Assembly (NCBI GenBank): GCA_965208905.1
Contig: OZ242365.1
Location: forward strand, 608,001-672,000
Origin: Nitrosopumilaceae archaeon
Lineage (GTDB): Archaea > Thermoproteota > Nitrososphaeria > Nitrososphaerales > Nitrosopumilaceae
Direction: 5' to 3'
Length of the DNA: 64,000 bases
Below the pieces are notes generated by a model, which saw only the letters and a list, made by a program, of their open reading frames with translations, was not told where the DNA came from and made no database searches. Below, piece after piece: positions 5,018-38,632 of this stretch; position 1 is the stretch's first letter; each line of letters opens with the position of its first letter. A program made the position numbers and the translations under genes.

Positions 5018-6490
5018 CTATACGGCAGTCACTCTGGACAAAGACAAGTACGGTTCATACTGCAAGCACGGGGGTTCCCGCATCCACAATACATCACACG
5101 TCACTCCAGAGGACGACGGTGCATGATACATCTCGTTCCCCGGTCTGTGCTTGACGTTTCTCAGGGGAGCTAATGCGAGAACCCTCCACGTCCAGACACC
5201 CCTTGTACAATGGGTGTTGCCGGTATGGTCCGGCAAGTTTCGTAAGTTTAGTTGGCCATGCCTAACCCCCAGGCCGAGTTTCTTCAGCCCCGCATCCTCT
5301 ATGTTTGAGCCTACATTACAGTCGGCATGATACGTGTGGCCACATTTTTTACACAAGAACTTTCTACCATCCCGGTTATCCTTATGTGTATAACCGCACG
5401 AGTAGCACCGTTGGCTCGTATACGCTGCCGCAACCCAAATTATCTCGCCAGCCAACTTGTACGCCAACAGTAATGCCAACAGCCCCCAGCACTGCTCCAG
5501 GATGGCCTTATTGAGACCAGATTTCTGCGCAACGTTTTTGCCGGGTTTTTCTTTGGTACCTTTGGCAGATTTTGCCATGTTTTGTGTAGGAAGTTTCTCA
5601 AAGGCTGCATGTGTGGTGCTGTTCGATATAACGCGCGATATTTTATGCGCGGTGGTCTTTCGAATGTTTGCAGCTTTGCGTTTGTTCTTGGCTGCACGTT
5701 TGCTGGCTTTGGCCCACCGTCGAGAACCAGGTTTACGATTCGCATAGTCGGGTTTATGCCTGCGTGACGCTATCTTTTGTGCCTTAGAGGCTGTTTTTTC
5801 GGCGTTGTTTATGCGGCGTGCCACCTTTTCGGGTATTATTATTACACAGTCAGGTGTGGCCACATTACCAACATTCTGGTCTATACCAATAACAGTCGGT
5901 TCCGTCACGGTTGGCTTCTCATCGGGTATATCACAGGATATGGTAATCCTCCACCCGCCATCCGGTAGTTGAAACAGTTGGGCCGTCTTGTATCGGTAAT
6001 TCAAGACGGGAAACTCCCGCGACAGTTTAGCCTCGCCCATCTTGGCTATCTTGATTGTACGTGTATCGGTGAAGCGCGCTTGGCCGACGGTACCATCATG
6101 TGTTATCGTCAACGGGATGGAGATGTGACCTCCATATTTCTTAAAGTGCGGTTCACCAAACTCTGCCTTGGGTTTGATGTTGACGGCCTTCAGCTTCTCT
6201 GTTTCCACATATTGGTCATAATGCCTGCCCAAGTCATGTAATATTTGGCGCGTCACCCCGGATATGGATTGACGCATCCAACGCGGACCCGAATGGTTGC
6301 GCAAGTCCGTATACCACGCGTTTATCCTACCACGCGTAGTGTTGACCCTCCCAGCTCGACGGTACTCCTCCTTGAAGGTTTCCAATAGTTTGTTATGCAC
6401 GTACCTGTCCATGCCGGCCTGTCTGGCCAACATCTCCTTCTTGAACCCTTTACGGAATCCAACGCCGAATGTGTATGTGCGTAGTACCAT
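5018..6490 (-). CDS. tnpB: TnpB RNA-guided endonuclease (RuvC + Zn ribbon)
   Basis: N-terminal DRYVHNKLL helix; RuvC D (IGIDQN), E (AFEKL), D (HADCN); [14 protein letters not shown]; ORF reads through the 3' TIR. Confidence 0.93.
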
Positions 6491-6567
6491 TAGCGTACAG
6501 TACGGTTTACATGTTTAAAAAGATAGTTGAGGTGTGATATATGGCACCCGTCCTTACGGGAGGAACC
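5052..6567 (-). mobile_element. Non-autonomous TIR element (IS6-like ends) carrying tnpB
   Basis: Ends GGTTCATACTGCAAGCACGGG (5052-5072) and revcomp GGTTCCTCCCGTAAGGACGGG (6547-6567); perfect 8-bp direct repeat ACAAGTAC at 5044-5051 and 6568-6575. Confidence 0.85.
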
Positions 6568-6609
6568 ACAAGTACCAATAGATAAATTTGTCTATGTAGT
6601 AAATTATTT

Positions 6610-6694
6610 GCGGGGGTTGCCAAGCCTGGTCAAAGGCGCAGGGCTTAGGACCCTGTCTTTCAGGAGTTCGCGGGTTCGAATCCCGCCTCCCGCA
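6610..6694 (+). tRNA. tRNA-Leu(TAG)
   Basis: GCGGGGG/CTCCCGC acceptor; CAGGG-CT-TAG-GA-CCCTG; long variable arm; GTTCGAATC. Confidence 0.95.
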
Positions 6695-14751: not shown

Positions 14752-18711
<3,960 letters not shown>

Positions 18712-18858
18712 CTCAATTATGCTGTATAAAGGATCTAATTAAGCGATACAGTTACAAAGCATGTTGAATTACATAGTTAGAACAAAATATGCCACCCTTC
18801 AGATCTGGAAGTTTTACTGTTATAGTTTTGAGTAGTGTCAGAATCATTCACCCTCATG

Positions 18859-19354
18859 GGTTCCTCCCGCAAAGTCGGGTGATTACACCCCCGCCATGCG
18901 GGATAGCCTGTCAGCCCAGTTGCTCCAGCAACCCTGTATGAGTGGTGTGGGATCGAGGATTACGTCCACACCACGACGGACTTCGCCCAGACTGGCCGAA
19001 ACCTGACGACCATATCGGGATACGGCACTTGTTCGCCGTATATTCTCCACTGCATTGACGTCGCGATCTACGCCAACCGTATGGCAGCGGGTGCAGTCTT
19101 TTTTATGATAAGTTCCAGTTAGTGGGGTTCTACATACAGCGCATAGCTTGGATGTGTTGTGTGGACGCATATGTAATGCCTCCACTCCCAAAAACCGGGA
19201 CTTTTCATAAATTAAATCCGATGCCTTTCGCATCATGGCAGAATGTAACCTGCGACGCATACTGCGTCCAAACTTCCCATTCTTCTGCCAATTGTATGAT
19301 ATGTGGGTTAAATCCTCCAACATAACCAAGCACCCGGACTGTGCGGGAGGAACT
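18859..19354 (-). mobile_element. Non-autonomous TIR element carrying only a tnpB 3' part
   Basis: GGTTCCTCCCGCAAAGTCGGG (18859) and CCCGGACTGTGCGGGAGGAACT (ends 19354); 8-bp DR CCCTCATG at 18851-18858 and 19355-19362. Confidence 0.85.
18883..19330 (-). pseudogene. tnpB: tnpB/Cas12f-like 3' fragment
   Basis: VMLEDL (RuvC-II), NTSKLCAVC..CTRC, DRDVNAVENI (RuvC-III); N-terminus and RuvC-I missing. Confidence 0.85.
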
Positions 19355-19574
19355 CCCTCATGTAACACATATTTGATAGGGTATAGCCCATATAGCAACA
19401 CAGCAGTGCTTTCGCATATGCGGAACAGACAACATAATCTCGTTTAACAGTGTATACAAACTTGGATTTGTCTGCAAGATCCCAACAATATGGTTCATTT
19501 TTAGATGTGTTTACATCAACGCATAAAACCCGCCATACGGTATGTTTAAAGGATTCATTAAATTCAAAGACTTT

Positions 19575-19649
19575 GGGTTCATAGTCCAGCTCGGTTATGA
19601 CGTCGCCCTTACACGGCGAAGATCCGGGGTTCAAATCCCCGTGAACCCA
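19575..19649 (+). tRNA. tRNA-Val(TAC)
   Basis: GGGTTCA/TGAACCC-A; TCGCC-CT-TAC-AC-GGCGA; TTTAAA box ~25 bp upstream. Confidence 0.94.
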
Positions 19650-19658
19650 CTCTTATGA

Positions 19659-20034
19659 GGTTCTTCCCACAAAGTGTCTACACTTTATGAGATAATCTGC
19701 CGGCCCTCCAGATAGGAGTGAGATCGTATGACATTGCGACAGACTTTTACCAAACTAGCCGAAACCTTGCAGTCTGCGCAAAATCTTAGCCACTTTACCC
19801 TTCCTTGCATCTTTGATTGACTTTGTATGATCATGTTGTCAATACTGATCCATTTGATTCTTTACTGCGTCTCTGTTTTTCTGCTTTTTTGAGTTTGTTG
19901 TGTCTGCATCTGAGTTTGCTGAATAGTTTGTGACCGCCATTTTCAATCTTCTGTTCCCCACTATGCGCCTCCTCTTTCTTGTGTGTAACCTCCTTTTAGT
20001 ACAGAATTCATCATTAAACTTGTGAAGAGGAACC
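19659..20034 (-). mobile_element. Degenerate element with the same TIR family
   Basis: GGTTCTTCCCACAAAG at 19659 and CTTGTGAAGAGGAACC ending 20034; no clean TSD; basic, possibly tnpB-derived interior. Confidence 0.55.
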
Positions 20035-38147: not shown

Positions 38148-38632
38148 GGTTCCTCCTGCAAGGCCGGGCGATGCCTGAAAAAGTGTCTCTACACGCTTGA
38201 ATAGTTTTTGGGATCATGGTAGACATGGTAGGCAAGAGGAAGCAGCGGAAAGGCAGGGCATCAGAACAGAGTATCAACAGGCGTGGACACCAGATCTATG
38301 AAAAGGGCGACCAGATCAAACCCTTGACCGGGTAGCACTGGGATGTGGCATCTCGAAGGGGAGGGCGTATTGTGTATGGTGTCACTCGGCTGCGGCAAGA
38401 CCACCTAAGAATGTCCCTATCATGTGCCCGGGAAAGGATGCAGGTGCAAGCACATAACCGCGGTTGAGTACATGCTGCTCAAAGATATCAAGCCCTCCCT
38501 CATGGGGAGGCTGATCATCGGAGAGGCGGGACTGAAGTGTCACGCCAAGTGGCCTGTATGTGTTGGTTCAGGTCGATTTTTGGGATACGATCTTGGATTT
38601 TAGATCAATTATCCGGCATTGCGGGAGGAATC
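38148..38632 (+). mobile_element. TIR-bounded remnant containing the 5' part of a SWIM-domain transposase
   Basis: GGTTCCTCCTGCAAGGCCGGG ... CCGGCATTGCGGGAGGAATC; interior CPYHVPGKGCRCKHITAVEYML with stops/frameshifts. Confidence 0.7.

Follow-up and report, generated by a model that had tools for sequence, protein, structure and literature searches.

How does the last part of a gene for an RNA-guided nuclease come to lie between the inverted repeats of a transposon that duplicates its target, and is anything that remains there still of use? The locus that raises this question is a 496-bp piece of DNA holding the 3′ end of a tnpB gene, found at 18859-19354 in a stretch of 64,000 nucleotides (hereafter the window; positions 608,001 to 672,000 of contig OZ242365.1) from a Nitrosopumilaceae archaeon. 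The host sequence is a 2.2-Mb single-contig genome, and the public sequencing runs that match it are labelled sponge metagenomes. In this study, we find the piece to be an independent insertion with its own 8-bp duplication. Very probably, and by the mechanism proposed below, it is a decayed, non-autonomous transposon copy whose parent was a ~1.6-kb tnpB-only element in IS6-like ends. Taken alone, it is an ordinary decayed copy. Its family is more instructive, and the landing sites of that family suggest that the nuclease may influence where copies persist. The features discussed are collected in Table 1.

Table 1. Features of the window that are discussed in the text (window coordinates)
Feature	Position	Strand	Description
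496-bp element	18859..19354	-	Internal-deletion derivative of a ~1616-bp A-type tnpB-only element
Target-site duplication, copy at right end (3′ of tnpB)	18851..18858		CCCTCATG; minus strand reads CATGAGGG
Target-site duplication, copy at left end	19355..19362		CCCTCATG
Right-end terminal inverted repeat, 25 nt	18859..18883		Plus strand GGTTCCTCCCGCAAAGTCGGGTGAT; 0 mismatches to the family end
Chimeric left end	19334..19354		True end, microhomology and tnpB coding sequence
TTA, directly 5′ of the duplication	19363..19365	-	Motif of the A lineage resembling a target-adjacent motif
TnpB C-terminal fragment	18886..19347	-	RuvC-II LEDL, CxxC...CxxC zinc finger, RuvC-III DRDVNA
Structured RNA region (candidate omegaRNA scaffold)	18859..19087	-	Overlaps the 3′ end of the tnpB frame
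Terminal hairpin of the candidate scaffold	18859..18903	-	Inner right-end repeat predicted to pair with adjacent subterminal complement
Predicted guide segment	18839..18858	-	Flank read out of the right end, CAUGAGGGUGAAUGAUUCUG; expected from the canonical TnpB omegaRNA layout
Full-length BC-type tnpB element	5052..6567	-	Duplication ACAAGTAC at 5044-5051 and 6568-6575; TTG 5′ of the duplication
485-bp relic, same end family, no tnpB	38148..38632	+	Interior from an IS6-like insertion sequence; no matching duplication

The insertion and its empty site

The insert terminates in inverted repeats, GGTTCCTCCCGCAAAGTCGGG at one end and an imperfect complement of it at the other; the arms are 20 nt long and 90% complementary. 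The 25 nt of the right end are found at both ends of the full-length copies that we call A-type below, and at the relic this repeat overlaps the stop codon of the tnpB frame. Allowing up to three mismatches, the end pattern has four matches in the window, as against none in 100 shuffles.

Contigs of four public runs could be placed on 18400-19800, two of them from DNA (X10 and X11, from two other studies) and two from RNA (X1 and X2). In both DNA runs a contig fuses 18850 to 19355. These contigs omit 504 bases, that is, the 496 of the insert plus 8, and the eight letters fit on either side of the joint, so that a single CCCTCATG is present at the empty site in X10 and X11 alike. Their flanks are 97-98% identical to the window, and within 18815-18858 no difference from it is listed. 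As both contigs join 18850 to 19355, the 496-bp piece is an insertion. An earlier note on this DNA had described a 496-bp element of the same terminal inverted repeat (TIR) family with an exact 8-bp duplication, and this description is borne out both by the sequence and by the empty site.

Parent elements and two tnpB lineages

To place the relic in its family, we searched the whole genome with three variants of the 21-nt end and obtained 71 end-like sites, which form 28 facing pairs. Identical 8-bp flanks surround 14 of these pairs, and flanks with one mismatch a further three. Among the 11 pairs without matching 8-bp flanks, one has a 9-bp duplication with one mismatch and ten have no matching flanks of any kind. 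There are two main size classes, both tnpB-bearing. Those of the A-type measure 1608-1618 bp, carry the same 25 nt at both ends and encode a 523-aa protein; those of the BC-type measure 1513-1519 bp, have two slightly different ends and encode the protein of the window element at 5052-6567. A and B ends differ at only 2 of 21 nt.

From its position 9 to its end at 496, the relic can be aligned to positions 1128-1616 of A-type copies, with an identity of up to 94.9%. On this alignment it is an internal-deletion copy of an A-type tnpB-only element, 5% diverged from each of the full-length copies of this genome. Parents of full length that bear these TIRs thus exist here, contrary to the condition under which the earlier note would have been refuted, and in nine A-type copies the tnpB frame is still open over at least 518 codons. 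Homologues of both tnpB lineages also sit in related inverted-repeat elements of other species of the genus (G083, G100, G125, G135, G065 and G043), most of them with 8- or 9-bp duplications, the G043 copy being without one. The association of tnpB with these ends, which the earlier note took to be recurrent, is indeed so, with two lineages in the same ends here and homologues in the inverted-repeat elements of sister species. No end pair was found for six of the nine BC-type loci of G083 and four of the five of G125, and the flanks of these loci do not enter the counts given below.

What the relic retains of tnpB is the last 154 codons. Its frame matches residues 370-523 of the 523-aa full-length protein at 92% identity and reaches Pfam PF07282 (the Cas12f1-like TNB domain) with 32 bits against a cut-off of 26.3. 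The earlier statement that only the 3′ part of tnpB was kept holds, and the structured RNA region was retained with it. RuvC-I and the whole N-terminal half are missing, and the fragment therefore cannot be an active nuclease.

The two full-length proteins differ in how readily they are recognized. By its matches to NCBIfam guided_TnpB (147 bits, cut-off 100) and to the Pfam entries OrfB_IS605 and TNB domain, the BC-type protein is a standard TnpB. The full-length A-type protein on its own reaches only the TNB domain, with 28 bits against 26.3, and a single-protein search of solved structures gave only matches at E ≥ 0.015. Significance needed a profile search: a six-sequence A-lineage profile matches Cas12f and TnpB structures with E = 6e-10 to 1e-8, the matches being confined to RuvC-II, the zinc finger and RuvC-III. 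Compared directly by BLASTP, A-type and BC-type proteins give E = 5.9, that is, no similarity, in line with the earlier view that the tnpB of the 496-bp element is divergent from that of 5052-6567 and represents an independent lineage. The two are separate tnpB lineages riding the same ends, both TnpB-like by profile.

Two results weigh against so reading the A-type protein over its whole length. Its N-terminal ~330 residues have no match in Pfam, NCBIfam or the PDB, and an AlphaFold2 model built on the six-sequence alignment is unusably poor (mean predicted local distance difference test, pLDDT, of 51; predicted template modelling score, pTM, of 0.31). Among 1.84 billion representative proteins, about six clusters match the A-type at full length and 21 clusters reach E ≤ 1e-30, and a scan of Joint Genome Institute (JGI) metagenomes with the A-lineage alignment yielded five loci, all distant C-terminal matches, and no further insertion sites.

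Origin of the relic by internal deletion

The left end of the relic is a composite. Read from the left, it consists of 8 nt from the true end only (19347-19354, GAGGAACT, the sole part of the left end with this origin alone), then of 5 nt of microhomology common to the true end and the tnpB interior (19342-19346, CCGCA on the minus strand), and then of internal tnpB sequence, the first part of which (19334-19341) is coding sequence that resembles the end. The contribution of the true end to the upstream "TIR" of the relic is therefore the outer 8-13 nt only. In full-length copies the counterpart is easily located, as CCGCACAGTCCGGGTG, inside tnpB and just upstream of the RuvC-II codons, resembles the inner end CCGCAAAGTCGGGTG. 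Homology of the relic to the full-length interior (near position 1129) extends up to 19346, and contigs of X10 and X11 that derive from full-length copies part from the window exactly at 19346 and continue into the full-length interior. The relic arose by deletion across the microhomology between the left end and the tnpB look-alike.

This refines what the earlier note had proposed, namely that the upstream TIR joins directly to RuvC-II. The deletion does extend up to the RuvC-II region, but the join lies within end-like tnpB coding sequence. The likeness to the 5052-6567 element that had been seen in an additional TGC next to the repeat has to be given up, as these letters originate in tnpB coding sequence and not in the end. 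The look-alike itself is not conserved at the equivalent place in G083, and we therefore treat it as a lineage-specific resemblance rather than a functional site.

Was the copy deleted in place, or did the 496-bp form move after the deletion, as a miniature inverted-repeat transposable element (MITE)? Its size, its two ends and its perfect duplication all fit a MITE. Other short derivatives keep both ends as well, one of 585 bp (A-type positions 1-172 plus 1185-1616) with a perfect duplication, and one of 355 bp (BC-type positions 1-240 plus 1402-1516) with a duplication that has one mismatch. Further, the relic is 5% away from every full-length copy, as opposed to a flank difference of 2-3% in the empty-site strains. 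Amplification, on the other hand, is not seen, the junction being present in one copy only in the genome; and the left end keeps no more than 8-13 nt of true sequence, with a tip that reads AG in place of the GG conserved at most other ends. The order of deletion and insertion is not fixed by these data, and we regard movement as a MITE as unlikely.

The ends belong to an IS6-like insertion sequence

Which transposon do these ends come from? At genome positions 926302-927837 (1536 bp) the same ends enclose no tnpB, but a frameshifted gene for an IS6-like DDE transposase, which by blastx matches one of the genome's own IS6-like proteins over residues ~100-459 (E = 5e-25). The relic at 38148-38632 is 70% identical over 113 nt to this decayed insertion sequence (IS). 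Intact homologues of 388-392 aa with near-identical ends are found in two sister species of the same genus, G125, with at least seven copies that have open frames of 395-396 codons, and G113, with a 392-aa gene. The G125 protein (388 aa) matches Pfam DDE_Tnp_IS240 (PF13610) with 36.1 bits against a cut-off of 27. The IS ends of G125 and G113 read GGTTCCTCCTGCAAAGATGGGTG or GGTTCCTCTCGCAAAGACGGGTG, which is nearly the sequence of the tnpB-element ends of this genome, and nine autonomous IS copies of sister species have perfect 8-bp duplications.

IS6 elements, as described by Varani et al. (2021, PMC7986276), are bounded by inverted repeats of 15-20 bp that have GG at their tips and contain cTGTt and caaa motifs, and 8-bp repeats are a further feature. 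The present family shows both the GG tips and CAAA at its ends. The cTGTt motif is not found in the ends of this genome, although relatives read GGTTCTATTGCAAA; in sister species, related tnpB elements have the ends GGTTCTATTGCAAA and GGTTCTTGTGCAAA. A DDE_Tnp_IS240-type transposase occurs neither in the relic nor in any tnpB-only copy. The tnpB elements are therefore non-autonomous users of the ends of an IS6-like IS, rather than IS6 members proper, an origin of the ends that had gone unrecognized in the earlier note.

Both kinds of element also occur joined to one another. A 3058-bp composite at genome positions 924780-927837 (L005) consists of a BC-type tnpB element, 8 bp (AGCGTTGA) and the decayed IS6-like IS; it is flanked by the duplication TTAAACTC, with its inner ends head to head and both genes pointing outward. 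A 789-bp element (genome 1047821-1048609), which has DNA homology with the decayed IS, is an internal deletion of such a composite. Signs of replicative cointegrate transposition are indirect only, namely the 11 of 28 pairs without matching 8-bp flanks and the exchanged flanks of two cargo elements. These are copies of a cargo-carrying IS6-like element at 1337692-1341644 and 1851328-1854929, whose 8-bp flanks (GTCCGTTG, AAAATAAC) are exchanged, as would be expected if copies had recombined or a cointegrate had been resolved.

The RuvC fold of TnpB is related to that of DDE enzymes, and the TnpB-like protein might itself be the transposase, which would account for the many tnpB-only copies with duplications in a genome where the sole cognate DDE gene has decayed. 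We hold this to be highly improbable: in sister species the same ends enclose an IS6-like transposase without tnpB and with the same 8-bp duplications, the ends are shared by two tnpB lineages that have no BLASTP similarity, and derivatives free of tnpB carry them too. The supply of an IS6-like transposase in trans, which we prefer, nevertheless meets two difficulties in this genome. Its one cognate transposase gene has decayed, and the other 13 IS6-like transposase genes have different ends of ~50 nt, with no obvious mobilizer among them, which makes present-day mobility doubtful.

A landing motif that differs between tnpB lineages

Seventeen duplication-bearing sites (14 perfect and three with one mismatch) were oriented by the direction of tnpB. 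On the left-end side, T is found at -2 in 17/17, T or A at -3 in 17/17 and A or G at -1 in 16/17, and the first duplicated base is C in 12 of the 17; on the right-end side of these sites no motif signal was found. At the empty site of the relic the minus strand reads ...TGTGTTA/CATGAGGG/TGAATGATTCTG..., with TTA immediately before the predicted guide. When the left-end flanks of copies without matching duplications are added, the 17 A-type flanks read TTA (10), ATA (6) and CTA (1), with T at -2 and A at -1 in all, and the ten BC-type flanks read TTG (6), TTA (3) and TTT (1). The choice of A or G at -1 thus differs between A-type (A in 17/17) and BC-type copies (G in six, A in three and T in one of ten; Fisher p = 4e-4). 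Written as W-T-R at -3 to -1 (W, A or T; R, A or G), the motif is present in 25 of 27 tnpB-bearing copies as opposed to 1 of 14 IS copies that have ends of this family but no tnpB (Fisher p = 8e-8). Its presence, on the side where a target-adjacent motif (TAM) would be expected, leads us to read W-T-R, or TT(A/G), as a putative TAM.

A different account of the same motif is that T-T-(A/G) is a target preference of the insertion machinery, with the transposase possibly reading promoter-like DNA and TnpB having no role in the landing sites. The tnpB-less IS copies likewise stand in a fixed orientation behind an A/T-rich, TATA-like block, recognized by eye further upstream in 10 of 14; tnpB elements have the same block at -12 to -7; and the tnpB-less relic at 38148 has ATA at -3 to -1. 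The shared A/T block indicates that the insertion machinery itself makes part of the choice of site. In IS200/IS605 elements the TAM equals the transposase's own target, and the two readings need not exclude each other. However, a preference of the transposase does not readily explain why W-T-R is so rare in IS copies without tnpB, nor why the -1 base tracks the tnpB lineage when A and B ends are so nearly alike. The hybrids 906661 and 838959, which combine a B-type left end with an A-type tnpB, show ATA, a form of the A-type motif, and the A lineage of G083 has a different end sequence, yet TTA in 4/4 copies. Moreover, A-type ends are identical over 25 nt, whereas the motif occurs at one of them only, the one remote from the 3′ end of tnpB. 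We therefore consider target preference without any part for TnpB possible but doubtful. The landing motif follows the tnpB lineage rather than the ends.

The TAM reading has its own weak points. The IS controls come from other, GC-richer genomes (those of sister species); a fifteenth IS copy, L093 (tcc), is absent from the Fisher test and is likewise without the motif. The A-type flanks include a solo end (258740) that lacks a tnpB match and is of uncertain polarity. Exceptions to the motif occur in G125 (TCA, TGT and CAC), in G065 (TTC) and in G043 (CAC, at a copy without duplication). These points, together with the ATA of the tnpB-less relic and the A/T-rich block of the IS copies, count against it.

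As to the autonomous IS copies themselves (L089, L094, L097, L105, L108-L113 and others; G125, G113, G135 and G065), they stand, in 10 of the 14 copies counted, in fixed orientation behind a TATA-like block (TTATAA, ATTAAA or similar) that lies ~6-12 nt plus the 8-bp duplication upstream. This placement suggests orientation-specific landing behind promoter-like boxes, or promoter capture.

A candidate guide RNA at the transposon end

The 3′-terminal 260 nt were aligned for 13 copies of the A lineage, which together represent five species. For these sequences RNAalifold gives 52 predicted pairs, and compensatory changes are seen in 23 of these. Pairing is kept in 94.7% of cells, in comparison with 38-42% when partners are slid by 1-3 columns, and 0/500 shuffles reach the observed values. 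In the best helix (helix 8, arms 18942-18950 and 18966-18974), 7 of 9 pairs are changed on both sides. An equivalent of the terminal hairpin appears in single-sequence folds of G000, G083, G100, G125 and G043 despite their differing end sequences. The complement of the right-end repeat co-varies with the repeat across five lineages, leaving ~6 nt (GGAACC) free before the flank, and no such complement was seen inside the left-end sequences examined. The relic's own fold has z = -2.2, with the terminal hairpin present, and the pairing of all ten predicted helices is kept as in open-frame copies.

Rfam, searched at E up to 1 with three full-length relatives (L001, L012 and L050; the relic was not scanned), gave two tRNAs and no guide-RNA family. 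The retained 3′ part is nonetheless laid out as a scaffold would be, and we regard it as a candidate guide-RNA scaffold whose last hairpin incorporates the transposon end. The duplication itself (CATGAGGG) would supply the first 8 nt of the guide. It weighs against this reading that the covariation comes from only 4-5 independent lineages.

Public RNA data touch the element at one place. A contig of X1 (195 nt, unstranded) covers 18870-19062 at ~96% identity, with five other letters and two gaps, and ends before the guide. Its depth is 23.9, as against 2.2 for a contig on the neighbouring gene, a weak hint drawn from contigs only. The X1 contig may be DNA carry-over or stem from another copy, and a transcript of the relic itself is not demonstrated by it, which again speaks against a working RNA. 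The RNA contig of X2 covers only 18400-18692, outside the element, and neither run gives cover of the guide or of 19063-19354, a gap in cover being no evidence either way.

Is the relic, then, inert debris that makes no RNA and has no effect on its family or host? In favour of this, the deletion has removed what lay upstream of the RNA, the element's own 5′ part included; the guide segment has no read in its support, as the RNA contig goes no further than 18870; the closest relative is 5% diverged; and the end tip is mutated. On the other side stand the ten helices, all of which keep the pairing of open-frame copies, and the contig of a near-identical copy on the 3′ part in an RNA library, with its weak hint of greater depth. 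We see the chances of inert debris as even. The earlier suggestion of guide supply in trans, by which RNA from the relic would be loaded by the TnpB of the nine open-frame copies, is plausible because the RNA scaffold is structurally intact and TTA precedes the predicted target in the empty site. The loss of the relic's own upstream region counts against it, and on the whole we think such supply unlikely.

Within the zinc-finger codons, ~10-25 nt upstream of the first well-supported helix, lies an A/T-rich stretch, TTATCATAAAAAAG (19097-19111, minus strand). As a matter of speculation, it could be an internal archaeal TATA box for the RNA; it is not conserved in GC-rich relatives.

Proposed mechanism and its significance

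The following course of events would be consistent with our findings. A cognate IS6-like transposase acting in trans would have inserted the copy, its 8-bp staggered cut giving rise to the CCCTCATG duplication, and ~1,120 bp were lost by recombination or slippage between the left end and the tnpB look-alike. In full-length elements, the RNA would form the guide scaffold, and its transcription would continue into the flank. The guide would then consist of the duplication and the downstream host sequence, which on the empty chromosome is preceded by TTA (TTG in the second tnpB lineage) as the TAM. TnpB would cut empty alleles and repair would copy the element back, favouring its retention or homing. 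The motif bias could come from such a filter by TnpB, or from co-adaptation of target choice and TAM. As the relic is unable to make TnpB, lacks its former upstream region and carries a mutation at an end tip, it is most likely immobile.

In its full form, the proposal is that RNA-guided TnpB brings about the homing or retention of an IS6-type DDE transposon that makes duplications. The guide would start with the duplication, the end repeat would form part of the last hairpin, each TnpB lineage would impose its own TAM (TTA or TTG), and relics without a transposase or even without TnpB would be protected in trans. We put this forward tentatively, and hold it to be somewhat less probable than its failure in one part or another; TnpB activity, the guide boundary and the TAM are all read from sequence, which weighs against it.

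The family indicates that tnpB and its presumed guide RNA can live in the ends of a duplication-making DDE transposon, and the presence of two dissimilar tnpB lineages in the same ends amounts to a natural swap experiment. If the motifs are TAMs, those of a TnpB clade that is both rare and divergent can be predicted from its insertion sites. If the proposal as a whole is true, a nuclease carried as cargo shapes the insertion profile of an unrelated transposase, and the landing sites are a natural read-out of the TAM. The system could further serve to test guide-RNA homing for transposons that copy rather than excise.

Comparison with known systems

Elements of the IS200/IS605 and IS1341 types have no TIRs and make no duplication, and are moved by a Y1 or serine TnpA. 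With the ISDra2 type of IS200/IS605, the family described here shares a gene for a RuvC/zinc-finger nuclease, a 3′-overlapping structured RNA region that abuts the end, and a short T-rich motif 5′ of the predicted target. In contrast to IS200/IS605 and IS607, it has 25-nt inverted repeats and an 8-bp duplication whose 8 nt would start the guide.

DDE-associated TnpBs provide a closer precedent. The main text of Altae-Tran et al. (2023, PNAS, PMC10691335) describes six branches of DDE-associated TnpBs that have inverted terminal repeats, along with solo TnpBs that share those ends and were presumably moved in trans, and it names only IS630 as a partner. As in these DDE-associated and solo TnpBs, tnpB lies inside inverted repeats, its 3′ end being at most 250 bp from the transposon end there and 24 nt from it here, and tnpB-only copies share their ends with transposase-bearing elements. 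The partner differs, in that we find an archaeal IS6-like enzyme (DDE_Tnp_IS240) with an N-terminal zinc-finger region. Two tnpB lineages per end family, an end repeat in an RNA hairpin and a lineage-specific motif are likewise not mentioned in the relevant passages of that paper.

Agreement with the IS6/IS26 group, as the family is characterized in Varani et al. (2021, PMC7986276), extends to the 8-bp duplications, the short repeats with GG tips and CAAA, the DDE_Tnp_IS240 transposase of the autonomous relatives and, among the cargo-carrying IS6-like elements of this genome, the exchanged flanks. The present element departs from that description in having no transposase gene and, in this genome, ends in which cTGTt is replaced; its autonomous relatives are 1.45-1.54 kb long with a ~390-aa enzyme, whereas the review gives ~0.8 kb. 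A single IS6 member with a passenger gene is listed in PMC7986276. TnpB homologues as passengers of cut-and-paste or DDE-type transposons with inverted repeats and duplications are also known from Fanzor, as set out in the relevant part of Bao and Jurka (2013, PMC3627910). There, the hosts are eukaryotes or viruses and the transposons belong to other superfamilies, in contrast to the archaeal host and the IS6-like ends of the present case.

Literature searches on TnpB with the IS6 family, DDE transposases, archaea and Nitrosopumilus returned no description of tnpB in IS6-type ends, although the supplements of PMC10691335 may list an IS6 partner. Beyond the passages of these sources, the present family adds the IS6-like partner, the two lineages per end family, the end repeat in a predicted RNA hairpin and the lineage-specific motif.

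Neighbouring genes and other loci

Some further observations concern loci of the same family and their surroundings. The relic at 38148-38632 encodes a SWIM-like CxC...CKH remnant. A tRNA gene at window positions 6610-6690 (Rfam tRNA match, L050) lies ~45 nt from the left end of the 5052-6567 element. At L003 (genome 805876-808440), an unrelated rve-type IS is found within a BC-type tnpB element, flanked by a 15-bp duplication, GAAATCTTCAAGGAA; it encodes a 388-aa integrase-core protein, the frame of which continues from the tnpB N-terminus.

Next to the 496-bp insertion, a 1319-aa open frame occupies window positions 14752-18711 on the minus strand and consists of long tandem repeats, with PEPEPE runs and repeated 34-letter units. 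The frame begins, with its start codon, ~150 nt beyond the right end of the relic in the downstream direction and on the same strand, so that any read-out from the relic would enter the region upstream of this frame.

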